Shown: piece after piece, positions 38,304 through 64,000 of the stretch
Layout of the letters: each line of letters opens with the position of its first letter
Numbering within the stretch: position 1 is the first letter of the stretch
Source: Escherichia phage vB_EcoS_HdK1
Reading direction: 5' to 3' (one strand)
Sequence record: MK373794.1
DNA length: 64,000 bases
Program-made: the position numbers and the translations under genes
The notes under the pieces: generated by a model
Databases searched by the model: none
What the model was told of the DNA's origin: nothing
Seen by the model: only the letters and a program-made list of their open reading frames with translations

Positions 38304-38954
38304 TTACTTTTTACACGCTTCAAGAAATTCCCGACGCCATGTGTCACCAGTTACGTCCGGTAATACACCATCACCCAATGCAGTACGTCCGCGGAATGCT
38401 TTAGTGATGGTTGAGCTTCCGCATACCTGTTTAATACCGCGCGACTCCATGCACATATGTTTTGCATCGATGTAGACACACACAGCTTTCGGCTCTAAAT
38501 GGTCACGGATAGCGTCCGCAATTTGATTAGTCAGACGTTCTTGGACTTGCAAACGTCGAGCAAAAGCATCAACCACACGAGATAACTTACTAAGGCCAAC
38601 AATTTTTCCATTCGGGACATACCCGACCACCGCATGACCAATAATAGGAGCCATATGATGCTCACAATGACTGTAGACAGGGATATCACGGACGATGACC
38701 ATTTCATCACAGTTTTCCCCACCATCCTCAAACGTTTTGAACAGGGATGCAATATCGACAGAATAACCCCCGAACCACGTTTCAAATGCTTTAGCGACGC
38801 GCAATGGAGTTTCAACTAGACCTTCACGCAAGTCATCGCCACCTTCAATCAACTTTAAAATCTTTTCGATACTGTGCGAAATTTCTGCTCGGTTTGTCAT
38901 CTTTGTAAATTCATTCATGGTTTGCAGTTTCCTTGTGTGGTCAATTATTTGCAA
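38304..38954 (-). CDS. folE: GTP cyclohydrolase I (FolE)
   Basis: Signature CEHH (..YSHCEHHMAPI..) and flanking conserved segments. Confidence 0.85.
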   Translation of the reverse strand: MQIIDHTRKLQTMNEFTKMTNRAEISHSIEKILKLIEGGDDLREGLVETPLRVAKAFETWFGGYSVDIASLFKTFEDGGENCDEMVIVRDIPVYSHCEHHMAPIIGHAVVGYVPNGKIVGLSKLSRVVDAFARRLQVQERLTNQIADAIRDHLEPKAVCVYIDAKHMCMESRGIKQVCGSSTITKAFRGRTALGDGVLPDVTGDTWRREFLEACKK

Positions 38955-39481
38955 TAGTTAACATGGCATTTAGATGTTTCTTCAATGGTACATTCTACCA
39001 GTTCAACACCATATTGGTCAAGCAGTTGAGGACCAATTACGTCAACCATATATGCAGCTAAGTTTTCCGCAGTTGGGTTGAATGGTAAAGCTACCAAAGA
39101 ATTAAAGAAAGGATCATAATCTTCATCCGTCACTAAATTGTTCTCGCGCGCAAACTTAGTCGATGCAACAACAATGAGCGAATTAATCAGGCTGTCTTGT
39201 TCCCAATGCAGGAACTTATGATCCCAATTATCTTCCAGCCACTGGCAGAGCGTAGTTTTAACCACACTAAAGTCGATAACGCGGCCTACATCGTCCAGGG
39301 ATCCTTCTAAAGCAAATCCACTTACAGACTTAACGTAACCTTCCGACAATGTTTTCTTTGGTGCGACTTTAAAATGGAACTTATAGTTGTGACCATGAAG
39401 ATGGCGACATTTGCTTTCGTGACCTACAACACGATGACCAGCGCAAATCTCGTGTGTGAAACGAATAACAGTGTAACCCAT
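38945..39481 (-). CDS. queD: 6-carboxy-5,6,7,8-tetrahydropterin synthase (QueD)
   Basis: C-x3-H-G-H motif (CRHLHGHNY) characteristic of the QueD family. Confidence 0.7.
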   Translation of the reverse strand: MGYTVIRFTHEICAGHRVVGHESKCRHLHGHNYKFHFKVAPKKTLSEGYVKSVSGFALEGSLDDVGRVIDFSVVKTTLCQWLEDNWDHKFLHWEQDSLINSLIVVASTKFARENNLVTDEDYDPFFNSLVALPFNPTAENLAAYMVDVIGPQLLDQYGVELVECTIEETSKCHVNYCK

Positions 39482-39483
39482 TT

Positions 39484-41647: not shown

Positions 41648-41720
41648 ACTTATTCATAATAACCTACCTTATTAGTTGAACATACCATGTCTTCTAGCGT
41701 GTGCGTGAGTATGTATAGCT

Positions 41721-42509
41721 TCACTCTACACCTAAATATTTGTGGATCTGCAATTGCACGATGTAATTGTGCTTCATTGCATATTTAACGACAGCTTGAG
41801 CGTTTGCTTTATTAGCATCGTCGTCCTGTTCATCCATAGGTTGAAGATAAATCTTACCTTTAAAGTGTACAGGCGGACGTGCGATAAATGGTGTCGCACG
41901 GTGATCCAGTGCCTGCAACGGTAAACCATCTTCCTCGTTGACGTTTCCGCTTTTCATTACATATTTGAAAGCATCCGCTCGAGCGGAAACGCTAGGGTGA
42001 ACCTTTGCTGCCTTAGGACTACATACTACCACACAGTTATAGTTGAGTTCACGCGGGATAGGCATAGTTCCGTTAGTTTCAACCTGTACGCGATAACCTT
42101 TCATATCAATAAGGTAATTGATAAAATTAGCAACTTCAGGTTGACGGAAAGGTTCTCCGCCAGTAATGACAACTAAGTTAGTCTTGGCTTCACCAGTAAC
42201 ACGGACAATCTCTTGCCAGATGTCACCGTGATTCATCTTCTTACGATTGGACGTGTAGTTTGTATCACATCCTGGGCATTGCAAATTACAACCAGCTAAT
42301 CGAACAAACACGGCAGGTTGACCACAAAACGGGCCTTCGCCTTGAATGGTATGAAAAATGGAATGCACGTCAAGAATACCACGTTCACGAACTAACTTCT
42401 CAGGTTCCTGAGTATTAATAATTTTCATATGATTTCCAAATTTGGCTTGAGCCCAGTGGTGGGCGATAATGGCTTGTGCAAACATTTGAACCTCGGGGTA
42501 AGATAACAA
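41721..42509 (-). CDS. queE: 7-carboxy-7-deazaguanine synthase (QueE, radical SAM)
   Basis: Motif RLAGCNLQCPGCDTNYT matches the QueE Cys-x3-Cys-x2-Cys-type iron-sulfur cluster signature. Confidence 0.8.
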   Translation of the reverse strand: MLSYPEVQMFAQAIIAHHWAQAKFGNHMKIINTQEPEKLVRERGILDVHSIFHTIQGEGPFCGQPAVFVRLAGCNLQCPGCDTNYTSNRKKMNHGDIWQEIVRVTGEAKTNLVVITGGEPFRQPEVANFINYLIDMKGYRVQVETNGTMPIPRELNYNCVVVCSPKAAKVHPSVSARADAFKYVMKSGNVNEEDGLPLQALDHRATPFIARPPVHFKGKIYLQPMDEQDDDANKANAQAVVKYAMKHNYIVQLQIHKYLGVE

Positions 42510-44201: not shown

Positions 44202-44441
44202 TTAATCCTTCCACCATTCGGGCCCACAATACATTCCACGTAGTTCTTCACGCATGTAATTTTCAAACTCGTCTTCAATATTGATTACTTGACTTTCGTG
44301 AAAAACTGCTACACCATGAATAAATCGTTTAGCTCTTTCTCCTTTAATTACACCGTAACCTAACGCCTCCCACTCTTTAAAAGTCTTCCATTCACCATCT
44401 TCCGGTGAATAGTCGTCACTTCTAAACGTCATCTTTGCCAT
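44202..44441 (-). CDS. Hypothetical protein, about 80 aa
   Basis: Internal start MAKMTF of track ORF 44202..44609, avoiding overlap with the helicase. Confidence 0.4.
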   Translation of the reverse strand: MAKMTFRSDDYSPEDGEWKTFKEWEALGYGVIKGERAKRFIHGVAVFHESQVINIEDEFENYMREELRGMYCGPEWWKD

Positions 44442-44448
44442 ATAAGCC

Positions 44449-46452
44449 TCAAAACGGAATGTCGTCATCAAAGTCTGGTGGTAGTTCTTTACCGTTACCA
44501 GTAAGAATAGGTTGATTAGACGTAGAATGCAATACTGTCGTACGGGAATCAGTCTGCTCATCTTCATCAAACTTATTCGTATAACTTCCACCAAACTGGG
44601 ACAGACCATTCATTGCTGCAATTTGTACAACCGGACGTTCGTTTGTTGCTTCTTTCTTACCGAATTCACTACCATCATAGCAACTATTCAACACTTCGGG
44701 GAACTTACCCTTCAAGTTGACATATATGTGCGTCGGTACACGAAGCTGGCTGACCACATTGAGTGCTTCGTCAATGTTAGCTGGGATTGCCAAGCTGCAA
44801 TGCTCGCGCCACCAGTTACGCGCTTTCTTACCTGCAAAGCCGGTATGGAACAGGCAAATATATTGTTGAATAGTTTGTGAGCCACAAAGATAGTCCACGC
44901 GAAGTGTCGGTGGCTTAGAACGGTCACCCCTGTTCTCGTGGCGGTAGTAACTCACCATATCAACTTTCAATACCTCAGTGACTGGTAAATCATTCTTGAT
45001 AATAGCTTTCGTACTAGCACTCGCCATTAGTTTCTTCTCAAAAGTAAACTCATGACCGCAATAACCAGCACGGCACGCTTTATTATTCGTAATGGTATAA
45101 CCTAATCCTTGCAGATAGAGTATTTCTTCATGTGACATGCTACTTGTGTCGAATGGTTTTAACCCACCACAGAAGCGAACTGACGCATGGTTCCATGTTT
45201 TACATATTGGGCATTCCTTAACAGGTGCAGCGGATTTTCCTTTCTGCCCTGGACGCTTAGGAATAACAGGGTCATTAATAGGCCCAAGGCGCCTTGTGTT
45301 ACCTGCATAATCCAATACAAGACAGTTCTGTTTATGCGAAGCGGAGATAGCTTGCAAACGACCCTCTGTTGTGGTCAAATCAAAACCATCTGCATAATCA
45401 GGTCGTGTACCACGTCCAAGCATCTGAACCCACAAACGGGAAGATTGAGATGGTCGCATACCAATTATCAAGTCAAGTCCTGGATGGTCAAAGCCTGTCG
45501 TTAATACGTTGTTGTTTGCTATTGCCTGTAAACGACCAGCTTTAAAATCAATAAGATACTGGTCACGCAAGGCTTTCGGTGTATCACCAGTTACAACTTC
45601 ACAACTAATACCGCGCTCGTTGAGGTAGTCCTTGACATCTTTTGCATGGTCTACACCAGCACAAAAGACAAGCCAACTCATTCTATTCTCTTCTTCCGCA
45701 ATACTAATCGCATCATCTAATAAATGGCGAGTTACATCAGGATCGTTTACAACCTTTTGAAGCTCACTTTCAATGAACTCACCGCCTCGAGTATGAACAC
45801 CACTTACATCATACTCTTTCTTTGTTTTACGTGGTACTAACGGAACAAGATAACCCTCATCAATGAACCAGTTGAAGCACTCTACGGTACATGCGTTAAA
45901 TACGATTTCATCAAATAAAGCATTAGGCGCATAATCATCTTTGATAATAGAACCAAAACCAAGACGCCAACTCGTAGCAGTAAGACCGATAATCTTTAGA
46001 TATGGATTCTTTTCACGAATGTGCGCAAAGAACTTCTGGTAACTTGTTTGTTGATTTGGGCTAATAAGGTCACATTCGTCAACTATAATAATATCAACGT
46101 CCTCAAAGTATTTAGCTTGTTTTGCAACAGACTGAATACCCGCGAACGTTATCATTGCGTTCTTATCTTTGCGGCCCATACCAGCACTATAAATACCAGT
46201 CGGTGCTTCAGGCCACAACTTCTTAAATTTATCGTGGTTCTGGTCTATCAATTCTTTTACGTGAGTAATTACCATCATGCGGGTACTACCCCAATTATCG
46301 TGAATTGTCTTTAATAGACCAGCAATTACAAGGGACTTACCAGTCCCTGTAGGCAACAAGATAACAGGATTTCCTGACTTTTCACCATGCTTGATGAAAT
46401 AGCGCAATGTACTGTTTACAGCTTCTTGCTGATAATCACGTAGTTTGAACAT
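44449..46452 (-). CDS. Superfamily-2 DNA helicase (DEAD/DEAH-type) with C-terminal Cys-rich region
   Basis: Walker A LLPTGTGKS, motif II IIVDECD, SAT-like TATSWR; C-terminal zinc-finger-like Cys pairs. Confidence 0.8.
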   Translation of the reverse strand: MFKLRDYQQEAVNSTLRYFIKHGEKSGNPVILLPTGTGKSLVIAGLLKTIHDNWGSTRMMVITHVKELIDQNHDKFKKLWPEAPTGIYSAGMGRKDKNAMITFAGIQSVAKQAKYFEDVDIIIVDECDLISPNQQTSYQKFFAHIREKNPYLKIIGLTATSWRLGFGSIIKDDYAPNALFDEIVFNACTVECFNWFIDEGYLVPLVPRKTKKEYDVSGVHTRGGEFIESELQKVVNDPDVTRHLLDDAISIAEEENRMSWLVFCAGVDHAKDVKDYLNERGISCEVVTGDTPKALRDQYLIDFKAGRLQAIANNNVLTTGFDHPGLDLIIGMRPSQSSRLWVQMLGRGTRPDYADGFDLTTTEGRLQAISASHKQNCLVLDYAGNTRRLGPINDPVIPKRPGQKGKSAAPVKECPICKTWNHASVRFCGGLKPFDTSSMSHEEILYLQGLGYTITNNKACRAGYCGHEFTFEKKLMASASTKAIIKNDLPVTEVLKVDMVSYYRHENRGDRSKPPTLRVDYLCGSQTIQQYICLFHTGFAGKKARNWWREHCSLAIPANIDEALNVVSQLRVPTHIYVNLKGKFPEVLNSCYDGSEFGKKEATNERPVVQIAAMNGLSQFGGSYTNKFDEDEQTDSRTTVLHSTSNQPILTGNGKELPPDFDDDIPF

Positions 46453-48407: not shown

Positions 48408-49136
48408 TTAATGATTGCACCGAGATGTGGATATTCCATCTGTTCTAACGAACGAACCAGAACGATCTTTACATACATTTGACAGATCTGGTCTTGTCAG
48501 CAGATAACGAAAATCTGCTTGAGTATTTTGGTCTTTACCAACACTAATCTTGAACACTTCGTCAAAAAAGTATGGTAATTCTGGACCTAATTTTGCACCA
48601 GGCATAGAAGGACCATAAGACGTAATACCTGTTAACTCGTCCTTATTACGGGACATTTTAGCTGCCATGTATACGTTAAGTCCAGGGATATCTCGAAAAG
48701 CACGAACCAACGTTTGCATCTTCTCAATGAGATCCCCATAAGCCTGACGCGGATCCTTTACAGTACGCTTCGCATTGTTAAGGCACTTTTCAGCAATCTC
48801 AGTAAGTGAATCCAGCGCAAGAGATTGAAAGCGCGGTAAACCATCTTCACCTACAGGATTGTTTGCAGGATTAGTTGCCCAAACATAAGCCTGCTCCACA
48901 TCCTGGATATTTTCAACCGTGATGGTTGGAATATCGTAACAGATATCTGGTCTGTTTTCACCAAACACACGAGCAATGTTATTCGGTGTTAAAGACAGAA
49001 GCCCAGACTCTGCAGAAATCAGCAACGGTCTTGGAAGAGTTGCTGTAAGCATGGTCTTACCCATACCGGATTCACCATACACAAGCATCTTGACACCAGT
49101 GTCCAAAACTGCCTGCGCGGTAGTTGTAAATTGCAT
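48408..49136 (-). CDS. RecA-like / AAA ATPase (Sak4-like recombination protein)
   Basis: N-terminal Walker A VYGESGMGKT; size of about 240 aa. Confidence 0.55.
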   Translation of the reverse strand: MQFTTTAQAVLDTGVKMLVYGESGMGKTMLTATLPRPLLISAESGLLSLTPNNIARVFGENRPDICYDIPTITVENIQDVEQAYVWATNPANNPVGEDGLPRFQSLALDSLTEIAEKCLNNAKRTVKDPRQAYGDLIEKMQTLVRAFRDIPGLNVYMAAKMSRNKDELTGITSYGPSMPGAKLGPELPYFFDEVFKISVGKDQNTQADFRYLLTRPDLSNVCKDRSGSFVRTDGISTSRCNH

Positions 49137-49200
49137 AAGTTGTTCCTTGTGTGGTTACGGTTGCAATACTAGGACCTAATTAACCTGAATGCAAACGTGA

Positions 49201-50145
49201 TTATTCACTAATATCTGTTGGATCACGGAAACTTTGATGCGTAGGAATACGCAATTTGTCTTTCATACCGTGAGCAAAGAATTTCCATTTAGAAATCTTC
49301 CCAATGAATTCATCAGGATGCTCAAAATAATATTTACGTTCTTCGTGCGTAAGACGACCAGCACCTACACGCATCTCTTGCCCGACTTCAATAAGATCTT
49401 CAAGGCCTTCTGGTACTGTAAGCACACGTACATCAAATGAGCCGACCATACCATTTGGAACCATATTAGCTTGATGGCTTGAACGATAAGTCTGCCCTAA
49501 CTCATTAATCTGGGCTTCATTCCCATTGGTGCAACCTTCGATAATACGAATGATCTCACCTTCACCATCAGTGAAACGCTTAATGCGGAGATAACCGCCT
49601 TCACGCTGCGTACTACGACCCCATTTATATTTCGCTTCAAGGTCACGAATAATAACACCTTCGTATCCCATATCGAGCCAAATATTTTCCCACTCCAAGA
49701 GTTCTTGTTCGTTGTTGACCACATACAGTGGCACAAGTTTCACGTCCATTAACTCACCGTTAGCGTGGCATTCGTCCACGTACTTCTTGAGCATGTCATA
49801 ACGCTCTTTGTACGGTAGATGTGCAACATTCGGTTCGCATAAATCGAACACATGCCACGTCCAAACGTATTCAGCTTCGATTTTAGATGTTGCACTACTT
49901 GTCTTGCGACATAAATCAAAGTCTGTTTCGTCCCCAACGGCAAGCTCACCGTCCATACCATCATAGATGGGAGATCCAAATACCTTTGCGACCTGCTTAT
50001 TTGCAAAAGATTTAAGACTTCGTCCAACAAGCTCCCCAAACGGTTTCATCCCACGAACGCCGTCAATTTTAGGCATGATACCTACAGGGTATTTCTGTTT
50101 AGCTGAATCCCAATCTGTTGCTAGATAAGGTTTAAATCGAGCCAT
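49201..50145 (-). CDS. ATP-dependent DNA ligase
   Basis: Motif I KIDGVRG (K-x-D-G-x-R), motif IV-like EGVIIRD, motif V-like YLRIKR. Confidence 0.8.
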   Translation of the reverse strand: MARFKPYLATDWDSAKQKYPVGIMPKIDGVRGMKPFGELVGRSLKSFANKQVAKVFGSPIYDGMDGELAVGDETDFDLCRKTSSATSKIEAEYVWTWHVFDLCEPNVAHLPYKERYDMLKKYVDECHANGELMDVKLVPLYVVNNEQELLEWENIWLDMGYEGVIIRDLEAKYKWGRSTQREGGYLRIKRFTDGEGEIIRIIEGCTNGNEAQINELGQTYRSSHQANMVPNGMVGSFDVRVLTVPEGLEDLIEVGQEMRVGAGRLTHEERKYYFEHPDEFIGKISKWKFFAHGMKDKLRIPTHQSFRDPTDISE

Positions 50146-50722
50146 TGAAATTTACCTTTGTGTGTTCCCGAACAAGAAGTTTTAACTTCCTAACCCAAGA
50201 TTGCTGTTTCTCAATGTTAACTTTCTTCGGTTTAGGAATAACGGATTTTGCTGTATCTACTTTTAATTTATCGTAGTCCATGCGTCGTCTACCTGTTCGC
50301 ATGTGCATACCCGCAATTTCATCGCACTTGTCTTGTGCAAGACTACGGGGATCCATCCTACCCGAATGACCTTTAACATGACGGAATTGGAAACTAAGCC
50401 TATTCTCGACAATAGTATCCATGAACCATTTATATACTTGCTGTTCTTCTCCTCTCGGTGGACGTTTACCTTCGAACATATGGATTGCTGCTTTGCAATC
50501 CGTCTGGAATAATATAACGTCGTTTGTGTAGATAAGTCCAGCTTCTATGCCGTGATATAAACCGTTAGCTACTGCAATACATTCAACTACGGTATTATCT
50601 GTGTGACCATGTGCAGGGCCACCAAAAGCCTTCTTACCCCGTTTGGAGGCTACCCAAATCCCATAGCCTCCACATTTAGTACGGTGACAAAACGACGCAT
50701 CCGATATTATCGTGATGAGCAT
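50132..50722 (-). CDS. Ribonuclease H
   Basis: Pattern ..TDNTVVECIAVANGL.. and HVKGHSG resembling RNase HI conserved segments. Confidence 0.7.
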   Translation of the reverse strand: MLITIISDASFCHRTKCGGYGIWVASKRGKKAFGGPAHGHTDNTVVECIAVANGLYHGIEAGLIYTNDVILFQTDCKAAIHMFEGKRPPRGEEQQVYKWFMDTIVENRLSFQFRHVKGHSGRMDPRSLAQDKCDEIAGMHMRTGRRRMDYDKLKVDTAKSVIPKPKKVNIEKQQSWVRKLKLLVREHTKVNFNGSI

Positions 50723-51148
50723 TTAACCCTTCTTAACAGCGATCTTAACCTGTGGAGAACCTGGAGTTGTGGTCACACATTCATCAAAGATTGCCAACTG
50801 TTCCGGTGTTAACTGACGGTATTTAGCAACTCGAAGTTCTACTTTAGTTTCAGTAACTTCGTTGACGTCAACTCCAGCTTTTACAAGATCTGGAAGGATT
50901 TGACTAAAGATAGCCTTATCAACTTTACGAGTATAAGGTTGAGTAACAACAAGATCGTCACCTGTATCAAGTTTGATCTTGTTAGTATTTTCATTGAGAC
51001 CATCTGGAAAGAAGACGCTAACCACACTCTGGCGCAGTGCGCGTTCTTGCGCTTGCACTTTGGTTAATTCTTCTTTCTTAGAATACCAGTTGTAAAGGAG
51101 TTCGTACTTCTGCTCTTCAGTTAAGTTCATTTCTGGTAACTGGACCAT
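50723..51148 (-). CDS. Hypothetical protein, 141 aa
   Basis: ORF track. Confidence 0.4.
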   Translation of the reverse strand: MVQLPEMNLTEEQKYELLYNWYSKKEELTKVQAQERALRQSVVSVFFPDGLNENTNKIKLDTGDDLVVTQPYTRKVDKAIFSQILPDLVKAGVDVNEVTETKVELRVAKYRQLTPEQLAIFDECVTTTPGSPQVKIAVKKG

Positions 51149-51223
51149 GTTATTGCCCTCGTTGTTTGCTAATAGGGGTATAATACTTAGAATTAAATTC
51201 CTTGTAAATACCCCTAAATATGA

Positions 51224-51742
51224 TTACAACTTACCAGTAGAACCAAAACCCCCGCGGCCTGTTTCTTCTACAATACCAGAAACAATGCGCGTACGAACCA
51301 ACTCCACAAGACGTGCCTGTGCAATACGTTCGCCAACCTGGACTGTGTAAGGTTCACAAGAGTCGTTATGTAGACGTATTTTCAACTCATCACGGTAATC
51401 ATGATCGATGATACCAGTACAGTTACCTAAACGAATCCCGTGTTTAAACCCGTGACCGCTACGTGAATAAACTTCCAGGCCATAACCATGAGGGATCTGT
51501 AGCTTAATACCCGTGCTGAACGTATACGCACGACCTGCATAGATAGTTACGGGCTCTGGTTCATCCGCATAGATATCAAAGCACATAGAACCTGGAGTGG
51601 CAAATCGTGGCATTTGAGCAGTGTCCGTAAGGAGCTCCACGATTAGCTGTTGCACAGCGCCATCTTGAACCGCAATAGTACCTTTGACAGTTACATCTTT
51701 GATAATATTAGACATATCGCCTTTGTTAGTCATGTTTTTCAC
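51224..51742 (-). CDS. dut: dUTP diphosphatase (dUTPase)
   Basis: Motifs RSGHGFKHG, GIIDHDYRDE, GERIAQ and C-terminal RGGFGSTG. Confidence 0.85.
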   Translation of the reverse strand: MKNMTNKGDMSNIIKDVTVKGTIAVQDGAVQQLIVELLTDTAQMPRFATPGSMCFDIYADEPEPVTIYAGRAYTFSTGIKLQIPHGYGLEVYSRSGHGFKHGIRLGNCTGIIDHDYRDELKIRLHNDSCEPYTVQVGERIAQARLVELVRTRIVSGIVEETGRGGFGSTGKL

Positions 51743-51881
51743 TCTCTTTATCGGACAGACGTTGTTCCCACTGTTGCTTTAACTGATAATAACGATAAGC
51801 GTCCTCACCAGTTTCAGCTTCCCGTTGCATACGTTCACACCATTGAACGGGACTTTCCTCACTACTCACTTCTTACACCTC

Positions 51882-52343
51882 CTAAGCGTGGCCGTTTCTC
51901 TTAATGTATTCGTAAGCATGTGATTTAAAGATCATTCGAAAATCTTCCAGGGATATTTCACATCTTGGGGGATCTTCTTTGTGATGTTTCGCTTCATCAG
52001 CGAAAAGCATGATAGGGTTCATATACAGGACTACGCGCCAGGACTTTTTATTTTGACGGTACATAAGAACTGGAAACTTGTCTGCTTCCAATGCACTCTT
52101 AACACACTGCGCCCACCATGTGTTAATTGATAGCTGCTCCTGTCGTTTAACTTCTACCGCATAGAAACAGGTATTTGTGATATCACAACCACCTACAGCA
52201 CTCTGATTCTGGTTACGTTGTGCTATGGGCTTTTCTGGATAAGTCATTCCAAGAGCGGCGTAAACTTCTTCGTAGATATCATTAAAGAATTTACAAATTT
52301 CACGCTCACCTGTTTGACCTTTAGTACGAGGATTAGCTCCCAT
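51882..52343 (-). CDS. Putative PD-(D/E)XK-type nuclease (possible Holliday-junction resolvase)
   Basis: Pattern KGQTGERE ... DITNTCFYAVEVKR; start placed at the ATG preceded by GGAG. Confidence 0.4.
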   Translation of the reverse strand: MGANPRTKGQTGEREICKFFNDIYEEVYAALGMTYPEKPIAQRNQNQSAVGGCDITNTCFYAVEVKRQEQLSINTWWAQCVKSALEADKFPVLMYRQNKKSWRVVLYMNPIMLFADEAKHHKEDPPRCEISLEDFRMIFKSHAYEYIKRNGHA

Positions 52344-52528
52344 GTTATAAATCTCCATCCAAAAAATAGGGGTACACAAGTACCCCCGAAAGCGAAGCAT
52401 ATAATAGATAATAACATGTCAGCGAGAGGCAGCCTTCGAAAAGGGGTAATCTACCAACCACTCTCGCAAATAATGTTAACCTGTTTACGTGTTTGATTAC
52501 AATACACGAATTCGTCAGAATTCACAGG

Positions 52529-52804
52529 TCATACCGTACATTTTTGCCAATGGCCCATAGAAAATGACAGCGAAGTGCAGACAACTTCCAACCCGTCATC
52601 ATCACGTACCACGGGCAAAGCTAGGCCGCTGCGGGCGTTATGTACAGTGCGGTGTACTCTATACACAGAGTTATGCGTAAAGCGCCGCGTGTTCGCGTTT
52701 GTGCAGCGTAATAACGATCCGATATGCACAAGTGGAGCAGGCATAGTAAAACCAATCATTAGATCCTTCTCTTTCTTATTAGGCTGGCGTACAGTTACAT
52801 TCAT
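52529..52804 (-). CDS. Hypothetical protein, 91 aa
   Basis: ORF track. Confidence 0.35.
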   Translation of the reverse strand: MNVTVRQPNKKEKDLMIGFTMPAPLVHIGSLLRCTNANTRRFTHNSVYRVHRTVHNARSGLALPVVRDDDGLEVVCTSLSFSMGHWQKCTV

Positions 52805-52979
52805 TGTGTCGTCCCCTCATTTAAAGATTCCAGGCGCCCACCTAACAAAATGAGCGATTTAATTTGATGCGGTTTCTTACCAAGATGTTCAGCAATGTGG
52901 TTATAAGTAAAACCTTTCTCCCGCATACGATAAGCAGTAATGGCGGCATTGCGATTGCGGATATCGGTTTTCTTACTCA
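52800..52979 (-). CDS. Small HTH DNA-binding protein (Ner/Nlp-like), 59 aa; below the ORF-track size cutoff
   Basis: Manual translation MSKKTDIRNRNAAITAYRMREKGFTYNHIAEHLGKKPHQIKSLILLGGRLESLNEGTTQ; HTH-like core. Confidence 0.3.
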
Positions 52980-53285
52980 TGGTAAACTAGCTCCCCTTAA
53001 TTTAGCTTCAATACGATTAATTAGCATCGACATACTACGATCTGCAACCATATGATGCGGTTCGTAGTAACCATATGCCCAATAGTTTACCTCTTGCCCA
53101 CAATGATTACAATTAATCTTTGACTCGCATACAGGCGAATAGTAGCCATCCACTTGATCTACGACAATCTCTGTAAACTCAGTGTGACCACACTTTGGGC
53201 ATCGTATGCACTTCATTTTCTTGTCGTAGTTTGAGCGAAAAGTATAAGGCTTCCACCCTAACACCTTGTATATTTTGCTAGGCAT
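52977..53285 (-). CDS. Zinc-ribbon protein, 102 aa
   Basis: Two C-x2-C pairs (CIRCPKCGH ... CNHCGQ). Confidence 0.4.
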   Translation of the reverse strand: MPSKIYKVLGWKPYTFRSNYDKKMKCIRCPKCGHTEFTEIVVDQVDGYYSPVCESKINCNHCGQEVNYWAYGYYEPHHMVADRSMSMLINRIEAKLRGASLP

Positions 53286-53509
53286 TAGTGTAGATTCTCT
53301 TTAGGTTGTTCTTCGCTCGTCATAAGGTGAGCTAATACGCTACATGTGTTTGATTTCTGCCAGGCTTTCTCAATTTCATCTAGCGAGGATTCTGGTTTAC
53401 ATAAGCGATAGGCTTCCATGAAGGAATTCTGGGCTGCTTCAATGATTGCCAAAGACACCAACACTCTTTCGTCTATCATTGTCATCATTTCTTCACATTT
53501 ATCACACAT
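53285..53509 (-). CDS. Hypothetical protein, 74 aa
   Basis: ORF track. Confidence 0.35.
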   Translation of the reverse strand: MCDKCEEMMTMIDERVLVSLAIIEAAQNSFMEAYRLCKPESSLDEIEKAWQKSNTCSVLAHLMTSEEQPKENLH

Positions 53510-53526
53510 ATTATTTCTCCAGTGTC

Positions 53527-53748
53527 CTAATCATCAATTAATGTGATATCATCCACAAAAAATAAGCTATCGTTCTGGATACATTTACGTCGATTGATAA
53601 TATCGTCGACATTGTAGTCCATCAAGGAAGGGTACTCGACCTCATCCTTCATACAAGGCCCATACACACTCAGACCCAACTCAGCCAAATGTTGCATGAA
53701 TCCTTCAAGAGATTTTTTAGTATAAATTGTCGTTTTTAATTTACCCAT
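53527..53748 (-). CDS. Hypothetical protein, about 73 aa
   Basis: Internal ATG (MGKLKTT..) preceded by AAGGAG. Confidence 0.4.
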   Translation of the reverse strand: MGKLKTTIYTKKSLEGFMQHLAELGLSVYGPCMKDEVEYPSLMDYNVDDIINRRKCIQNDSLFFVDDITLIDD

Positions 53749-53783
53749 CGCCCACTCCTTAAATCTTAATGGTAAACTGGAAG

Positions 53784-53981
53784 TTAAAAGAACGTACCAG
53801 TTAACACATACAGCACAGCGTCGCGCAGTGTTGGTAACAAAGGTGAACAATTAGGAACGCTGTAGAATTTACGTGATCCCACTTTAACACTCACTATTGT
53901 AATAGAACGTTTATTGCGCTCTACTGCGTAGAGACCACCACCGAGACGACGGACTTTATATAGAGGTTGATGCTTTTGCAT
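53784..53981 (-). CDS. Hypothetical small protein, 65 aa
   Basis: ORF track. Confidence 0.3.
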   Translation of the reverse strand: MQKHQPLYKVRRLGGGLYAVERNKRSITIVSVKVGSRKFYSVPNCSPLLPTLRDAVLYVLTGTFF

Positions 53982-53998
53982 GTTTTAACTCCTTTCTT

Positions 53999-54277
53999 TT
54001 ATTTGCTGACACGTATGGCTCTACCTGTTAAGAAGGTGTATCCACAGTGCCGCATTAAGTCACGTTCTTCTATTACACTTCGTAACTGGCGTGACAGCGT
54101 TTCATAGTAAGGACGGACTTCGTTCTTACTTATAGCTAAAGCATAGGCGAACAGTTGTTCCGAGTCAATACGATTAGACTTGATTCTTTTGATCGCCTGC
54201 TCAATTCCTGGGAACTCCTCATCCTGGTATAGAGCACCGTACACAATTTTAATAGCTGCTAGATTGTAACTGGACAT
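53999..54277 (-). CDS. Hypothetical protein, 92 aa
   Basis: ORF track. Confidence 0.4.
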   Translation of the reverse strand: MSSYNLAAIKIVYGALYQDEEFPGIEQAIKRIKSNRIDSEQLFAYALAISKNEVRPYYETLSRQLRSVIEERDLMRHCGYTFLTGRAIRVSK

Positions 54278-54312
54278 TTGACCCTCGGACGTAAAATAAT
54301 TCTTGATACCTA

Positions 54313-54340
54313 TTGCATTCCTAAGGAAATGCTCTATAGT
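54313..54340 (+). promoter_or_regulatory. Sigma70-like promoter (TTGCAT, 16 bp, TATAGT) for the plus-strand moron
   Basis: Near-consensus hexamers about 35 bp upstream of the 54376 start codon. Confidence 0.45.
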
Positions 54341-54375
54341 ATGTATTATACAGTTTGTAAGCGGAGGAACACAAA

Positions 54376-54606
54376 ATGACTCACCAAGATCTTATAAAAA
54401 GAAACATCAGAACTGCAATGAACAAGTCAGAGGAATTCTCACATAACTGTACTGATGGTACTCATAAAATTAGATACGAATATATGGGATCCTCAACTGT
54501 GGTTAAGTTTGAGAAAGATGAGTATCACGTTGGAGATTTTTCAACACCAGATTACGACGAGATGTTTGAATACGTTGTATGTGGGTTCTTAAAATTGCAC
54601 GAATAA
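54376..54606 (+). CDS. Hypothetical small protein, 76 aa; lone plus-strand gene inside the leftward replication block (moron-like)
   Basis: GGAGG ribosome-binding site, own promoter and own terminator; opposite orientation to all neighbours. Confidence 0.45.
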   Translation: MTHQDLIKRNIRTAMNKSEEFSHNCTDGTHKIRYEYMGSSTVVKFEKDEYHVGDFSTPDYDEMFEYVVCGFLKLHE

Positions 54607-54610
54607 TATA

Positions 54611-54636
54611 ATGGGCGCATATAGCGCCCATTTTTT
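54611..54636. terminator. Terminator after the plus-strand moron (also downstream of the primase-like gene end)
   Basis: ATGGGCGC..GCGCCCAT stem followed by TTTTTT. Confidence 0.6.
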
Positions 54637-57201
54637 ATAACTTAATAACTTCGTTCATTCTCTCAATATCTACCAAATAACACTTCATTCTCGGTGGTGT
54701 AAACTCTGCGCCGAAGAAATTTGAAAAGTCCATTGGCCTCATCTCGGTAAGAACTTCCATAGACATCAAACCATAGATTGTATTGTCTATGACCTGTAGG
54801 ATGTTGTCATTTCTTGTCTGTTTAAAAGCCTTGAACTGGCGACATACTGTGCATAGATCACTCCTTGTGACAATAAATGCGTCCTTAAACATGGGAAACC
54901 GTTTATATACACCAGCTTTAACTTCACCATCCAAGAACTTCTTAATGGAGTTCAGCATTATCTTCTCACGACTTGTACTGTCCGTAGAACCAATCTGCCC
55001 ACTGTTACGCTTCTCTAAGAAACGCTCGTTACCCTGATCGATAAATGACTCAGCCCAACGATAATGTTCCATAGTGACAACAGGACGCTCACTGTTATCT
55101 GCAACAGCAAGAAGAGAAGCTATACGCAATACCTTCAACGCCTTCCTTGTGTACATCTGACGAATTACTTCGTCTTGCACCTGCTCACCATCATTGCCGC
55201 TGTTCAGGAACTTCGCAACAATATTATCAAGATTATCAAACGCTTCGTGTACCTCTGCTTCCATTTCAACATAACACGGAGCAGTCCCTGACATAATACG
55301 CACAGCTTGTTTATAGATAGCTCCAATAGTGCGCAGTATTGCTTCTGGATATTCCAGGAGCATACTCTTATTCATCAATGGGCGGTTAGCTGTACATTCC
55401 CATGCGATAATACGGGACATGAAACCACTCGACATCATGCGGTCATCTACGTTCCCGTAAAATTCATCTGGTGTTGTTTCACCTGCAAAACTATACGCCT
55501 TAACCTTACCGCCAGCAGTCGTATTATCTTTACTAGAGTGCTTTGAACCACCAGAGAAAGCATAGAAATGCCCCTTGTCATAAAGGGAAAGCATTTCATC
55601 CATAATGTCTTTAGCTTTACCGACTTCCATCTTACCGTTACGGAAAAAATGCACCGACTTCAGTCTTATAGTTAATGGATGAGCCACAAGACATAACGGA
55701 CGTATCCATTATGACATCCTTGCGCAATGCAGCATCAGACGCATAGGTACTTGTATCCAAGACACGTTCGATACCAAATATCTGCTGACCGTCTTGACCG
55801 CCATAATTGGATACTTGAGAAAAAAAAGAATAGTTTCAATGTTGGAGCGAAACGCTTCTTTACCAATACCAGAACGTGCAATTAGTACAAAGTAGTTATT
55901 CAAACCACTTCGTGTGACTGTGTTCCACGCCTTACCGCACATACCACTAAATAAAGCAAGCGCAGACAGAATACTAATGTCTTTAATAGGCAACAAGCTC
56001 GCTTTATACATATTACGCGCAACCTCGCCCATAAAGCCCGGAGGCCAAGCCAAACCGTCTGCCTGCTCTTCAGTGTAATTACCATCTGTAGTCAACACTT
56101 CTTCAGGTGGGCGTTCTGGTGTAGTTGCTTGACGTAGTTTTTCCGTGCGCTCTATAGCTGCATTAACGTTATTCTGAACTATCTGCATAAGTCCCATAGA
56201 TTTAACATGGGCATCGTAGCGATAGTTGCGAATCATTCTATCCAGGTGGTACGGACGTTTAATTTTTTCACCAGGCATACGACGGGGAATCATCGTAACG
56301 GCTACTCATTGGTGAATACATGAATAGACGTCTTACCTGGAAATTGTACTTACTCTTAAAGCAAAGAAAGTCAATTAATGCAAATTCTGCTTCAGACTGA
56401 GAAGGGAAACAACGTTCACCGATTAGAAGTATCAACTTCTTCAGCTCTCCAACGACCCTCCCATAGCTGCTTAAACAATGTTCCGTTTTCTTGTTCGCAC
56501 AACTGAATATAGACATCCTGGTCTTCCATTGCATATGGGTCGTTACTAAAATCTTCTTCAGTAAGTTCCAGCATTTGGAAGCCATCAGACTCATTAATCT
56601 CACTCATCTCAGACATAAGTTGGATGAATGAGATTAGCGATATACCCTTCGCTTTCACTGCCTGGAGCACCAGACACAGTGCGCGGGAGTAAAGTAACAT
56701 CCCAGTGATCCCCTGTACAGATAATAAAACGATACTGGGAATACACTTCCACACCGTCACGGCGCTTACCAGCCTGAGGGGATGGAATAAATCCATGTGT
56801 GCAACCCATCACCGCTTCTGGAAATTTCCGTATAGCTATGGAAACGATTCAACAATCTTCTTATATCGCTCACCAGCAACTTTCTTTTCCATTTCAGACA
56901 TGGTATCTTTAATGTCCATGTCGATACAACAGAACGGGTCACTTGGAAGTAGATAGAAACCTAAACGCAAGTTATGACCAATCTCGTTATAATAACGAAC
57001 GCAGCGTTCAGCATCTTCAAAAGACATAAGTAAATGCAGGTTAGACGGTTTCTTATCATTACCGTCTTTACGAAGTGGGACCATATCCCCTAAATCATCG
57101 TCCCATACATAAGGTTGTTTTTCTGATGATGTACCCGGATGGAAACCGCAGACAGCCCACTGTTCGTATTGTTTAATTTCTTGAGGAAAAAGTTCCAGCA
57201 T
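54635..57201 (-). CDS. Putative bifunctional DNA primase-polymerase (AEP-type N-terminal domain plus C-terminal domain), fragmented into at least five ORFs by apparent frameshifts
   Basis: Track ORFs 54635..55687, 55709..56293, 56416..56796 and 56836..57201 plus alternate-frame readings form one continuous coding region; AEP-like motifs CIDMD and RSGDGLH; frame changes at plus-strand A6 (55645..55650) and A8 (55821..55828) runs. Confidence 0.45.
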
Positions 57202-57210
57202 GTTATTACC

Positions 57211-57447
57211 TTAAAACGTAGCGGGATTAATTTCAAATAACGAACGTGATGGTACAACATCAAAGTTGACATCTACCAGCTTAAAAGAATTCGTGTAAAC
57301 ACACCATGTACCGACTTTTTCATTAAAGACGGGCTTGTCATTATTAAATGCGTACACGCAACCATCAGAATCTGTTGCAATATATCTTGTGTCTTTTGGT
57401 ACTTCTACATCTGAACCATAATAGTGAACGATAATTAAATCTGACAT
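57211..57447 (-). CDS. Hypothetical protein, 78 aa
   Basis: ORF track. Confidence 0.4.
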   Translation of the reverse strand: MSDLIIVHYYGSDVEVPKDTRYIATDSDGCVYAFNNDKPVFNEKVGTWCVYTNSFKLVDVNFDVVPSRSLFEINPATF

Positions 57448-58205: not shown

Positions 58206-58514
58206 TTATTGCTCCATAGCTTGTTTCATCAATGCGTCATAGATACGTTTCGTGCTAGACGCGTTCCACAGTTGTTCGTCTGTCTGAACTTCCTGGTTCC
58301 ATTGCTTGTCCAATAAACCTTCTTCATACGCATCTTTAATACGCTTGCACAAAGTAAGGATGTCTGTTTGAAGAATATCAATTTCTTCTTGAGTTAACGG
58401 AGCATTCTTAAATGGCTCTTTAACTACTGCAATAATTGCTTCATAAATGCTGTATGCAATGCCGCCGCAACAATGTGCCTCCCGCGCAATAGCTTCACCA
58501 ATGTCGTCTGTCAT
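58206..58514 (-). CDS. Hypothetical protein, 102 aa
   Basis: ORF track. Confidence 0.4.
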   Translation of the reverse strand: MTDDIGEAIAREAHCCGGIAYSIYEAIIAVVKEPFKNAPLTQEEIDILQTDILTLCKRIKDAYEEGLLDKQWNQEVQTDEQLWNASSTKRIYDALMKQAMEQ

Positions 58515-58546
58515 TTCACGCGGGATAATAACAGGATCTGCAAGGA

Positions 58547-58756
58547 TTAGATAGAGCGAAGAGCCTGCAACTCTTTCTCCAATTGGTCGATTCGCATATC
58601 ACGATGTCCCAACTCCGCAGCAATAGCACTTTTACTATGCAGTTGTTCGGACGTCATTGCCATAACGTGACGAGAATAAAAACCACCAGCTTTATCTAAT
58701 TCAAAAGCGTCACGCTCTTGATATAAACGCACACATTCTTTACTCATCTTTGCCAC
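58547..58756 (-). CDS. Hypothetical small protein, 69 aa
   Basis: ORF track. Confidence 0.35.
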   Translation of the reverse strand: MAKMSKECVRLYQERDAFELDKAGGFYSRHVMAMTSEQLHSKSAIAAELGHRDMRIDQLEKELQALRSI

Positions 58757-60545: not shown

Positions 60546-61309
60546 CAGCAATATACGAAACGGCGAAGCGAAGTGTATGAAAAATAAGGGAAAATTTCGA
60601 GAGTTGGGAGGTTTGTAGTGATTTATATTATTTATAAAGGGGTCTCGTGGGGTCGTCAGTAGACAACTCAAAAATAAAAAATCTTTATAAAATTTATATA
60701 AATACACACATATACACATTTTTACCTTATTTTTCATGCACTTACCTCCTTTCATTTCGTATATTAAGCGACAATATACGAGCAATATAAGAAATATTTG
60801 TTGCGCAACAACGAGGCGCTCACAAGCTCGCGCACGCGCATAATGCGGGCACGCGGTCTAACACAAAAGAAAATTGAATTGCAAGCGATTTTTGCTGAGG
60901 TAACTCTCGAAGCGAAAGCGATTTGCGAGTTTGAAATTTTGTAGCCCGAAAACGATTCTATTTTATGGTATAAATGTCGGATTTTTCGGTGAAAGGTGGC
61001 TTTTCGGTGAGGTTGGGTGGCTGGGATCGGTGTAACTGGTAGCCCATAAAGCGAAAATAGCCGCGAAAACGGGGCACGCAGCGCGATTAAATGGTTGGAT
61101 CAGTGTAAGGGTGGCGGTGAGGGGGCGAAAATGCCGCAAAATCGCTTACAGGGATGCAGGGAGTGGGCCGCTGTAAGGGCGTATAAGGCGATTAAATTGG
61201 AGTCTATGGTAATGTATGGAAGATGGATTTAGGCTCTTAGAGCGCGAATGGTGGAGCTATGGGTGAGGAATATGTGGTCAGCAGGGTAGCGCGGGAGGTT
61301 ATGCAGGTA

Positions 61310-61352
61310 CAAAAACGAAAGCGCCCCGTTGGACTTCAACAGGGCGCGGATT
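61310..61352 (-). terminator. Second copy of the early-operon terminator (same as 618..660)
   Basis: Within the terminal duplication. Confidence 0.55.
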
Positions 61353-61370
61353 GTATAATGCTTTTAGAAG

Positions 61371-61619
61371 TTATTTACTAGTTAATAATACCGCCCAGGT
61401 ATTATCTGGAAGCGTACCAACTCCGAGTATCTTAAACTGAAGCGACTTGTTCTGCATGTTGTAGTTGTCGAGTAACTCCTGGGCAGCCGCAGCAGCGTTC
61501 GCTTCACCGTTCAGGTTGTAGTCGTTTGCAGTTATTGCACACATACCGAGACCGACCGCTTTGAAGCGCATACCTTTGGATTGAGTCGGTGCAAGTGCTT
61601 TAACATGGATAGCGTTCAT
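61371..61619 (-). CDS. Duplicate of the 679..927 gene (paralog family A)
   Basis: Identical translation in the ORF track. Confidence 0.5.
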   Translation of the reverse strand: MNAIHVKALAPTQSKGMRFKAVGLGMCAITANDYNLNGEANAAAAAQELLDNYNMQNKSLQFKILGVGTLPDNTWAVLLTSK

Positions 61620-61648
61620 ATTATTTATCTCCGTTACAATTTGAAAGG

Positions 61649-61912
61649 TTAGCAGTTTTTTAACAGGTTGATGAAGCCCACCAGCGTGGACGCTGTTGCA
61701 ACCAGGCGGCCCATAGTATGCAGTTCCGCGTAAACTTTACCGTCGTCAAACACAGTTAAATAAACGTTAAGACCATTGCAACGGACGCGATATTTGCGCG
61801 AGTTATTACCAAAAGTTTCCAGCTCTGCGGTGATAGTCGCAAGATTAGCTATACGTTTGCCGATAATGCGGCGAGTGATAGTGGACTGGTTTAATACTGT
61901 AGACATAATCAT
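61649..61912 (-). CDS. Duplicate of the 957..1220 gene (paralog family B)
   Basis: Identical translation in the ORF track. Confidence 0.5.
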   Translation of the reverse strand: MIMSTVLNQSTITRRIIGKRIANLATITAELETFGNNSRKYRVRCNGLNVYLTVFDDGKVYAELHTMGRLVATASTLVGFINLLKNC

Positions 61913-61974
61913 TTCCTCTGTTAACTATGCGAAGTGCATATTATTGCCCACTGTTACTATGGGCAATGTATATG

Positions 61975-62139
61975 TCACTCAGCGGACACATATTCTAACG
62001 CTTCTGATAGTGTAGCGAAGTAACCATCGCTCACCAGATTAATAGCGTACTCAAGTTGATCGCGGGTCAGGTTGCGAAACTTGTTACGGATGTGATAGCA
62101 ACGACCGCGATAAATAACCTGGAAATAGTTGCGTTCCAT
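61975..62139 (-). CDS. Duplicate of the 1283..1447 gene
   Basis: Within the terminal duplication. Confidence 0.4.
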   Translation of the reverse strand: MERNYFQVIYRGRCYHIRNKFRNLTRDQLEYAINLVSDGYFATLSEALEYVSAE

Positions 62140-62149
62140 AATTATCCCC

Positions 62150-62395
62150 TTATGCAACGATGAACGCGTAACCGCTTTGATCCGGGAGTTCACCACCGGA
62201 AAGAATTTCAAACTCAACGCCCGCTTTATCGCTGAACTTTTTGATAAGCTCTTCCGCTGCGGCGCGGTGGTTGCCGTAAACACCAAGATCGTCACGCCAC
62301 GTGATAGTCAAGGAGCCGTTCCAACCTGTTGCTTTTACGCGCGGGTTACGGGTGGCAGTCGGGTTCATGAATTTTGTGATGATAGCTTGAGCCAT
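62150..62395 (-). CDS. Duplicate of the 1458..1703 gene
   Basis: Identical translation in the ORF track. Confidence 0.5.
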   Translation of the reverse strand: MAQAIITKFMNPTATRNPRVKATGWNGSLTITWRDDLGVYGNHRAAAEELIKKFSDKAGVEFEILSGGELPDQSGYAFIVA

Positions 62396-62400
62396 GATAA

Positions 62401-62586
62401 TTACTCCGGTAAAATTACAGTGACGTTAATATTTGCAAGGCGAGCGCACTCGCGGAAACCTTTTACATAAGCATCCATTTCGTCATAGGATGCGAAAGTT
62501 GCGTCCGGGACTGGTCCGTTGTTAATATTCACGCAATATTCGTGTTCGTCCAGGTCAACCCAACAAGTCAGAACGATAGTTTCCAT
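62401..62586 (-). CDS. Duplicate of the 1709..1894 gene
   Basis: Within the terminal duplication. Confidence 0.4.
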   Translation of the reverse strand: METIVLTCWVDLDEHEYCVNINNGPVPDATFASYDEMDAYVKGFRECARLANINVTVILPE

Positions 62587-62664
62587 ATTATTTGCCCTCC
62601 GTATAATACAGACCCGCAACTATTGGAGCTCCGAAAACTAAGAAAGCTAATAAATAGAACATAA

Positions 62665-63144
62665 TTAGTTACCCCCTTTATTGTTGAGCCCGTTGAATTT
62701 ACGCCATGCGTAGAATTCAATCGTTGCATTATTAATATTCCAACCATTAGCTTTCGCAAGGTCACGGACGTTACCAATAGTTGGCACACCATCAGGCAAC
62801 ATATTATCCAGGGCATTCCAAACGTCTGCGCATTTACCTTTAATCGGGCGACGAACCCCGTTGCGCGTTTCGCTGCGCGTTTTGCTCTTGGCTGGAGCGA
62901 CCGGAGCTTGTTGTGTGGTCACTTCCACGACAGTCGCTTTATCAGCTTCCACCAGATCGCTAGCTGCCTTATTAACCGCGCTTTCGCTGTACCAGTAGCG
63001 ACCACCGTCTTCGTGCGGTTCCTGGTGAATAAAGCTATTTGCTGTCGCAGTGTCCACATCCAGAACCTTTTTTAAGGCACGGCGAGCGTTAGACATAGTG
63101 GCGAAGAAGCGAGCGTCTTTTGCTACGCGAGTGATAGTAACCAT
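62665..63144 (-). CDS. Duplicate of the 1973..2452 gene
   Basis: Identical translation in the ORF track. Confidence 0.45.
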   Translation of the reverse strand: MVTITRVAKDARFFATMSNARRALKKVLDVDTATANSFIHQEPHEDGGRYWYSESAVNKAASDLVEADKATVVEVTTQQAPVAPAKSKTRSETRNGVRRPIKGKCADVWNALDNMLPDGVPTIGNVRDLAKANGWNINNATIEFYAWRKFNGLNNKGGN

Positions 63145-63220
63145 TGTGAATATCTCCATGTTGTTCTAGCGGATTGCTAGTGGGAGCCCACTGTTACAAT
63201 GGGCAACCATTAGCACGCTA

Positions 63221-63527
63221 TTATTGTTGAATAGCTTTATCTATCATTGCGATGAAGCAGAACACAGACCAAAGGCTATTCGCTTGGCATACTGCGCGAC
63301 CATACATTACGCTATAAGAGCTGACAGTACCGTCCTCGTTAATGCGAATATATAACGCGGTGCTGGAATACTTTTCGTTGCCCGGGAGCATTACTAAATA
63401 CTCGTCGAAACCCCAATCCCCGTCGACTTTTTCCGCAGTAAGGCCCAGTTGGTGCAGTCGCTTGCCAATAATGCGCTTAGTAATCTGAGATTGGGACATG
63501 GAACGCGGTAAGTAGATAATGGACATA
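63221..63527 (-). CDS. Duplicate of the 2529..2835 gene
   Basis: Identical translation in the ORF track. Confidence 0.5.
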
Positions 63528-63706
63528 ATGCAATCTCCCTTCGGGTGAGGCGGGCGCGGAACCCGTGTCCCGCTTAACAACCCCCTTAACCCTACACAGT
63601 TATAGTATGACAACGGGGTATCAGATGCAACTATTATCTGCAATATTTTAGAACTTTTTTAGTTGTGTTTCATAATAATAACATCCGGGACTATGCGGTA
63701 GATGGT

Positions 63707-63780
63707 GTGCCGGAAATACCAGGTAGCGCGAGCGTGCCGAAAATACCAGGTAACAGCACGCGCCGAACATACCAGGTAGC
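63707..63780. repeat. Second copy of the three tandem iteron-like repeats (same as 3015..3088)
   Basis: Within the terminal duplication. Confidence 0.55.
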
Positions 63781-64000
63781 ACATACATAGACAGCACATA
63801 GTGGGCAGGTGGATAGTAACAGATGCAATTATACTGGACGGTACAGTATAGTCATGTAATAGATAGCATACTAATTAAATAAAAAATAATAACGCGTGTA
63901 ACAATAAACAACGTTACAGTAGAGCGCGCAACAGTCACATGACGTAACAATCACCTCACTGACGATCACGGGACGTTATAGTAACGCCGCGGGGCGGCTC

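Follow-up and report, generated by a model that had tools for sequence, protein, structure and literature searches.

A primase-helicase gene in a Nonagvirus genome record, split into apparent fragments very probably by insertion errors

Near one end of a genome record of Escherichia phage vB_EcoS_HdK1 (MK373794.1; the whole stretch analyzed, 64,000 nucleotides, is referred to here as the window), pieces of what looks like a single primase are spread over short open reading frames (ORFs) on the minus strand. An earlier note, made from the letters alone, listed among these an ORF of 121 aa starting at the ATG at 57201, which carries CCIDMD, and one of 58 aa, which carries RSGDGLH, with further minus-strand ORFs of 67, 126, 111, 194 and 350 aa. 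It proposed that at least five such fragments join into one coding region of about 850 aa for a primase-polymerase, provided that frame changes at poly-A runs are allowed. The locus raises the question of whether one gene is present, what its product does, and whether the gene is broken in the phage or only in the sequence.

The window is a complete, wrapped Nonagvirus genome (Queuovirinae; an E. coli siphovirus resembling 9g and JenK1); positions 1..3308 are identical to 60693..64000, so that one genome unit measures 60,692 bp. The genome of JenK1 is colinear with it, and gene order agrees throughout. A megablast search of 54400..57400 against the phage collection returned 17 records, all Nonagvirus, with 100% query cover and 92–97% identity; in Nonagvirus records the region is annotated 'DNA primase/helicase'. 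The closest of these, JenK1, is 97.0% identical in nucleotides over the gene, and its AKA61098.1 (2550 nt, 849 aa, one coding sequence (CDS)) is the orthologue of the single-copy gene in the window:

54635..57201, minus strand: primase-helicase gene, 2567 nt in the window; ATG at 57201..57199, stop codon at 54635..54637.

The gene is thus already known as the annotated primase/helicase of Nonagvirus phages. A single CDS of 2550 nt is also found in HdSG1, SP8, ESCO3, JenP1, FritzHoffmann, BRET and PD328, and a single ORF in IMG/VR contigs. When the SF2 helicase of the window, which is intact, was looked up as an exact protein, five other assemblies came up (88–98% identical); in four independent assemblies with an identical SF2 helicase protein, the primase is called as an 849-residue product with intact neighbors. 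The assembly collection has no record of the first fragment's 121-aa product. No near-identical clean twin was found in the phage collection, in IMG/VR or by the exact-protein look-up; the closest relative found is ~97% identical.

Pairwise and multiple alignments with the JenK1 gene place eight insertions and no deletions in the window copy. Seven of the insertions shift the frame and one, of 6 nt, is in frame. They are given here with plus-strand coordinates, as BLAST placed them:

56842: +1, plus-strand AA to AAA (coding strand GTTCC to GTTTCC, ~56842-56844).
56778: +1, coding-strand C run CCC to CCCC (~56778-56781).
56687: +6, in frame (~56687-56692), a duplicated TTACT and a further C, adding 'LL'.
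56622: +1, coding-strand C to CC (~56622-56623).
56423: +1, coding-strand A to AA (~56423-56424).
56284: +1, coding-strand CCC to CCCC (~56284-56287).
55820: +5, plus-strand A3 to A8 at 55820..55827 (coding strand T3 to T8).
55644: +1, plus-strand A5 to A6 (coding strand T5 to T6, ~55644-55649).

In 12 relatives whose 2550-nt gene is intact, none of the eight sites carries the insertion, and the T5 to T6 change, present in Salmonella phage SE1, is the sole insertion common to another record; the comparison covered ten aligned relatives, among them JenK1, HdSG1, SP8, ESCO3, JenP1, FritzHoffmann, BRET, PD328 and 9g, and five IMG/VR contigs. A 29-mer containing the T8 run has no exact match in IMG/VR, whereas its T3 form occurs in five contigs. 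The earlier note's minimum of five fragments was correct as such but low, as the frameshifting insertions delimit eight segments, distributed over three frames and none with a stop in its own reading frame:

56845..57201, minus strand: segment 1, frame 0, 119 aa (MLELFPQ...KKIVES), with AEP motif I CIDMD at 56914..56928.
56782..56844, minus strand: segment 2, frame +1, 20 aa, beginning at a +1 insertion, with AEP motif II SRSGDGLH at 56799..56822.
56624..56781, minus strand: segment 3, frame +2, 52 aa (PQAGKRRDGVEVYSQYRFIICTG...), beginning at a +1 insertion and holding the in-frame +6.
56425..56623, minus strand: segment 4, frame 0 again, 66 aa (QLMSEMSEINES...), beginning at a +1 insertion.
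56288..56424, minus strand: segment 5, frame +1, 45 aa, beginning at a +1 insertion; helical-bundle region, with FPSQSEAEFAL at 56376..56408.
55828..56287, minus strand: segment 6, frame +2, 153 aa, beginning at a +1 insertion; linker helix and start of the ATPase, with P-loop ARSGIGKE at 55856..55879.
55650..55827, minus strand: segment 7, frame +1, 59 aa, beginning at the +5 insertion.
54635..55649, minus strand: segment 8, frame +2, 337 aa and the stop codon, beginning at the T5 to T6 change; rest of the DUF3987 AAA+ domain and a C-terminal helical, winged-helix-like region.

The two AEP motifs do lie in different ORFs and frames, as the note had described, and the intervals that it singled out for resequencing (55640..55830 and 56290..56840) come within a few bases of all seven frameshift sites. 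Its attribution of the frame changes to poly-A runs holds for two or three of the seven (55644, 55820 and 56842), the others being at G runs or at a single G or T.

Deletion of the seven frameshifting insertions yields one uninterrupted ORF of 2556 nt and 851 aa rather than a set of unrelated short ORFs, which bears out the proposed single coding region of about 850 aa; with the gene present as one ORF in relatives, the agreement goes well past what chance could give. No in-frame stops are left after correction, and the indels in the gene are all insertions. Compared with JenK1, the corrected ORF has 58 codons that differ synonymously and 2 that differ non-synonymously; of 61 substitutions, 56 fall in third codon positions. 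Strong purifying selection has therefore maintained the reading frame until the present. The only amino-acid substitutions are I168V and L305M, beside the 'LL' insertion, which is probably spurious. Relative to the Nonagvirus orthologues (JenK1 AKA61098.1, HdSG1 QBQ81083.1, ESCO3, JenP1, BRET and FritzHoffmann/Bas20; PHROG 3022), the corrected product has 851 rather than 849 aa; they share its neighbors, 92–97% nucleotide identity and, after correction, 97% amino-acid identity, but not the eight insertions, seven of them frameshifting, of the window copy.

The insertions in this gene are not isolated. In well-aligned context, the genome as a whole carries 32 insertions versus 7 deletions; all 22 single-base insertions duplicate a neighboring base, and those of 2–5 nt are local duplications. 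Flow-based or single-molecule reads that have been insufficiently polished typically show base duplication with such an insertion bias. When the JenK1 CDSs are mapped onto the window, 17 of 54 are broken, including those for a tail fibre and QueD as well as the following:

12954..14063: major capsid protein, with frameshifts at, for example, 13465 and 14040.
19440..22702: tape measure protein, with frameshifts at, for example, 20225 and 21385.
6401..6900: lysin, with a frameshift at, for example, 6642.

A phage with broken capsid, tape measure, lysin and similar genes would be non-viable and could not be propagated. These defects, together with the fact that natural coding indels do not consist almost wholly of base-duplicating insertions, point to a sequencing or assembly artefact. 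We therefore consider it very probable, from the pattern of the indels and the comparison with relatives, that the fragmentation is such an artefact and that the gene is an ordinary primase-helicase gene. Seven spurious frameshifting insertions and one of 6 nt would have split it into eight apparent fragments as part of a genome-wide, insertion-biased, base-duplicating error pattern, and would give no sign of a split, recoded or decayed gene in the phage. In the primase gene, the public record of 9g shows a 1-nt deletion of its own and that of SE1 two 1-nt insertions, so that the gene seems to have been mis-sequenced repeatedly. Two observations fit this explanation less well. The jump from T3 to T8 exceeds what a simple homopolymer miscall usually produces. 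In addition, of the ~34 frameshifting indels in the genome, seven lie inside the primase gene within a single 1.2-kb stretch, a density ~5 times that elsewhere (binomial P 5e-4; scan permutation P ~1e-3), and this local excess goes unexplained by a uniform error model. Beside this cluster, at 55.6–56.9 kb, the errors form a second one at 13.4–15.8 kb.

The significant concentration of frameshifts in one gene speaks for the alternative that they are real and that the primase-helicase is a true pseudogene of a defective or decaying phage (for example a non-viable variant from a metagenome, or a degraded stock), and sequence alone offers no proof that the frameshifts are errors. We regard this as improbable nonetheless. 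The signature of purifying selection (58 synonymous versus 2 non-synonymous differences) is intact, the gene has neither in-frame stops nor deletions, and every event in it is a small base-duplicating insertion, in keeping with the 32:7 ratio genome-wide. Decay of the primase-helicase would, moreover, have to be accompanied by the same kind of breakage in capsid, tape measure and lysin, and would require ~30 mutations that arose independently and very recently, all of one type, with no substitutions alongside.

Programmed recoding, in which ribosomal frameshifting or transcriptional slippage at homopolymers joins the fragments or gives truncated isoforms, draws on the fact that two of the sites are long coding-strand T runs (T8 at 55820..55827 and T6 at 55644..55649) and that the T6 state recurs in the independent SE1 record. 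However, read-through of T6 stops after three codons, inside the ATPase domain, and would not give a sensible isoform; the other five shifts are at runs of 1–4 nt with no slippery heptamer. It would take seven separate shifts, effectively in both directions, the shifted states are conserved in none of the 12 relatives, all of which have the protein in one frame, and the same type of insertion breaks unrelated genes, so that recoding is very improbable. Taken singly, the fragments have weak Pfam matches or none, which might suggest a set of independent small genes, or chance ORFs with a resemblance to parts of a primase; this reading can be given practically no weight. Most of the fragments have no plausible start of their own; they are colinear and contiguous with one 849-aa orthologue at 97% nucleotide identity, and the corrected 851-aa ORF matches PHROG 3022 end to end. 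The alignment, the ORF and the PHROG match refute this last reading.

If the fragmentation is indeed an artefact of sequencing or assembly, its practical value is that of a warning, as about one-third of the genes in the window copy would be mis-annotated as fragments. Other 'split gene' findings in the window are to be read in the light of the ~34 frameshifting indels.

The corrected protein matches PHROG 3022, 'DNA primase', with an E value of 1.9e-245 over residues 2–838, and its predicted architecture is as follows:

Residues ~1-170: AEP domain of the NrS-1 prim-pol type, with a metal-binding DxD (CIDMD) and a nucleotide-binding SGDGLH.
Residues ~180-360: helical bundle and linker.
C-terminal part: AAA+ ATPase domain (DUF3987), in which the GK of the P-loop is conserved, and then a helical tail.

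By phmmer, residues 29–167 match the N300 structures of the NrS-1 primase-polymerase (E ~3e-9) with DxD and SGDGLH aligned, and a profile of 25 sequences searched against the PDB found both NrS-1 (1e-17) and the SaPI5 primase 7ola (1e-32). In an alignment of 25 homologues at 30–97% identity, the residues of the AEP motifs are invariant: D94 and D96 in motif I, in which CIDMD aligns to FIDLD of NrS-1; S127, G130, G132 and H134 in motif II, in which SRSGDGLH aligns to SPSGDGLH; and E151 in a candidate motif III stretch, GVEVYSQYRF, which aligns to LEVYESGRY. Equally invariant is the SQSEA motif downstream (S264, S266, E267 and A268), in a stretch that aligns to the SaPI5 primase 7ola. No curated Pfam AEP model scored above its gathering threshold, AEP-TOTE (PF22548) reaching 24.1 bits against a cut-off of 27, and because of this sub-threshold score the assignment to the AEP superfamily rests on the PDB and profile evidence. 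NCBIfam gave no match for the corrected protein.

The C-terminal domain that the earlier note had also mentioned is present and can be further identified as a helicase-type AAA+ ATPase. Pfam DUF3987 (PF13148) is matched over residues 564–713 of the corrected protein at 29.1 bits, against a cut-off of 27 below which the uncorrected fragments fall, and at 30.1 bits in a 97%-identical orthologue (P0001). In the P-loop, G443 and K444 are invariant in the 25 homologues, the residue after K being E and not S or T. Although phmmer and profile searches of the PDB missed the ATPase half, a fold search reached it. The AlphaFold model of P0001 (mean pLDDT 86) matches archaeal and eukaryotic MCM subunits, which are AAA+ proteins, with its C-terminal half (Foldseek E 6e-6 to 1e-4), and six NrS-1 N300 structures with its N-terminal third (7e-10 to 5e-9). 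The match to MCM is partial, with a TM score of ~0.3 normalized to the target, and fits either SF3 or SF6/MCM. A search of 5.8 billion proteins returned hundreds of single-chain homologues of 745–870 aa, most of which combine DUF3987 with PF22763, the HBD domain of NrS-1.

These sequence matches and the structural model indicate that the protein is a primase-helicase fusion, in line with the annotation in relatives, and not a primase-polymerase only. The prim-pol type of the AEP domain, as claimed at the outset, is borne out by the matches to NrS-1, and a polymerase activity may be supposed from that similarity; primer synthesis and DNA polymerase activity are known for NrS-1 only (PMC7102993, PMC8718748). 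A literature search on the Nonagvirus primase found genome descriptions only and no reports of enzymatic activity. The architecture of AEP prim-pol, helical bundle and AAA+ ATPase fits a class already described, to which NrS-1 polymerase and the SaPI Rep proteins belong. Judged from the analogy to NrS-1 polymerase and SaPI5 Rep, the protein is most likely a ring-forming, NTP-hydrolyzing translocase that unwinds DNA, with tethered AEP domains that would lay down primers during translocation.

NrS-1 polymerase, from a deep-sea vent phage (PDB 6a9w, 6k9a and 7rr3), consists of a prim-pol domain, an HBD and an SF3-like hexameric helicase (PMC7102993). It resembles the window protein in the sequence and predicted fold of the N-terminal AEP domain and in the overall order of prim-pol, helical bundle and ring-type ATPase. 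However, identity between the two is only ~20%, the residue after the P-loop K is E here versus G in NrS-1 (PMC7102993), and the C-terminal ATPase here is DUF3987, with a predicted fold nearest to MCM-type AAA+ and no match to the NrS-1 CTR. NrS-1 also differs in that its own protein serves as replicative polymerase, whereas Nonagvirus genomes carry in addition an ORF annotated as a B-family polymerase. The best PDB profile match, SaPI5 Rep from S. aureus pathogenicity islands (7ola/7om0), is likewise a multidomain primase fused to a helicase. Its match covers profile positions 4–264, that is, the AEP domain and the next helical region with the SxSEA motif, but stops short of the ATPase half, and its host element and replication strategy differ.

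The phage in the window has an ORF that is annotated 'DNA polymerase B region' in the JenK1 record.

The sites of the insertions give a hint, but only a hint, of miscalls at modified bases. Among the 22 single-base insertions, 18 lie at, or immediately beside, a G belonging to a GA or GGC motif of either strand, versus 11.9 expected from runs matched by base and length (P ~0.006 in a post hoc test), and five insertions of 2 or 5 nt (13465, 19349, 44088, 55820 and 59928) are, by eye, at such motifs as well. GA and GGC are the preQ0-modified motifs of the related phage CAjan (PMC7544227), and a FolE/QueD/QueC/QueE cluster is present in Nonagvirus genomes, including the window. It is this combination of motif bias, CAjan motifs and gene cluster that suggests miscalls at modified bases. 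A genuine link to the motifs would account for the susceptibility of 9g-like genomes to errors of this kind. The clustering in the primase gene is not accounted for by the density of GA and GGC, which is 0.148 there versus a genome mean of 0.151. A fuller version is rather unlikely; in it, a single-molecule sequencer has systematically miscalled G positions modified to 7-deazaguanine, and the primase excess reflects either a local state of the DNA or genuine hypermutation or decay of this one gene in the population sampled. If true, the modification motif of a Nonagvirus could be read from the positions of the errors, and the excess in the primase gene would mark a locally different state of the DNA, such as denser modification or a replication-origin-like structure.

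Two neighboring features complete the description of the locus:

44449..46452: SF2 helicase (ResIII/DEAD/Helicase_C), separate from the primase-helicase gene.
54610..54632: G+C-rich hairpin immediately past the primase stop codon, with a stem of nine pairs and a loop of 5 nt.

The former is the separate SF2 helicase to which the earlier note had added a primase-polymerase as a further probable part of the replication module. The hairpin lies between the primase gene and a plus-strand ORF (54376..54606) that converges on it. Judged from its sequence, it appears terminator-like in both directions, with a T run on the plus strand only and a minus-strand tail of ATATTATT; the HdSG1 and SP8 records annotate a terminator at this position.

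The disruption of the primase-helicase gene is part of a genome-wide pattern. When genes were mapped from JenK1, the closest Nonagvirus relative, 17 of 54 were found to be frameshifted in the window, including the following:

6401..6900, lysin gene
12954..14063, capsid gene
19440..22702, tape measure gene
27826..31492, tail fibre gene
38945..39482, QueD gene

Across the whole genome, insertions outnumber deletions (32 versus 7), and each of the 22 single-base insertions duplicates a neighbouring base. Other findings of fragmented genes in the window are probably products of the same insertion-biased, base-duplicating artefact of sequencing or assembly.

Frameshifting indels are unevenly spread. 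Seven fall inside 1.2 kb of the primase gene (55644..56842), and the capsid region (13465..15756) holds six insertions, five of them frameshifting, inside 2.3 kb; by contrast, stretches of 5–7 kb, such as 21385..28137 and 48447..55644, contain none or one. The density of GA/GGC motifs does not account for these clusters; local coverage might be responsible. At the level of individual sites, the G of a GA/GGC motif on either strand lies at or beside 18 of the 22 single-base insertions genome-wide, where 11.9 would be expected (P ~0.006, in a post hoc test). In the related phage CAjan, GA/GGC are the reported motifs for 7-deazaguanine (preQ0) modification (PMC7544227), and the enrichment at insertions may be the signature of miscalls at modified bases.

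The primase gene is also split by 1-nt indels in two public Nonagvirus records, those of phage 9g (L002) and Salmonella phage SE1 (L003). The 9g record carries an indel at gene position 120 and annotates the gene as products of 79 and 755 aa, and the SE1 record has indels at gene positions ~509 and ~1553 and annotates three 'DNA primase' CDSs. The window and SE1 have in common the change from T5 to T6 at window position 55649, and the other SE1 insertion lies at the spot TTACT|CC, the identical site to the in-frame 6-nt insertion in the window.

Whether the prim-pol domain could double as a polymerase depends in part on the status of one further reading frame:

34309..36282, minus strand, 657-aa ORF, counterpart of the JenK1 CDS annotated 'DNA polymerase B region'

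This ORF gave no Pfam match at E <= 0.001, so that no curated model here supports identifying it as the replicative polymerase.

Several larger differences from JenK1 seem to reflect normal variation between strains, not errors:

3429..3958, stretch without JenK1 counterpart
41681..41709, 29-nt intergenic insertion
44214..44450, stretch without JenK1 counterpart
58403..58735, stretch without JenK1 counterpart
59137, hypothetical gene with a 24-nt in-frame deletion

In JenK1, an HNH homing endonuclease gene (JenK1 41718..42248) separates the ligase and RNase H genes; it is absent from the corresponding junction in the window (~50128..50132). Since this gene is present in loci L018 and L021 and missing from L019 and L020, it represents a presence/absence polymorphism, a pattern typical of a mobile homing endonuclease. 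Finally, the window ends (1..3308 and 60693..64000) are 100% identical across 3308 bases; the window is therefore a single wrapped genome of 60,692 bp, in which any feature within 1..3308 is counted twice.
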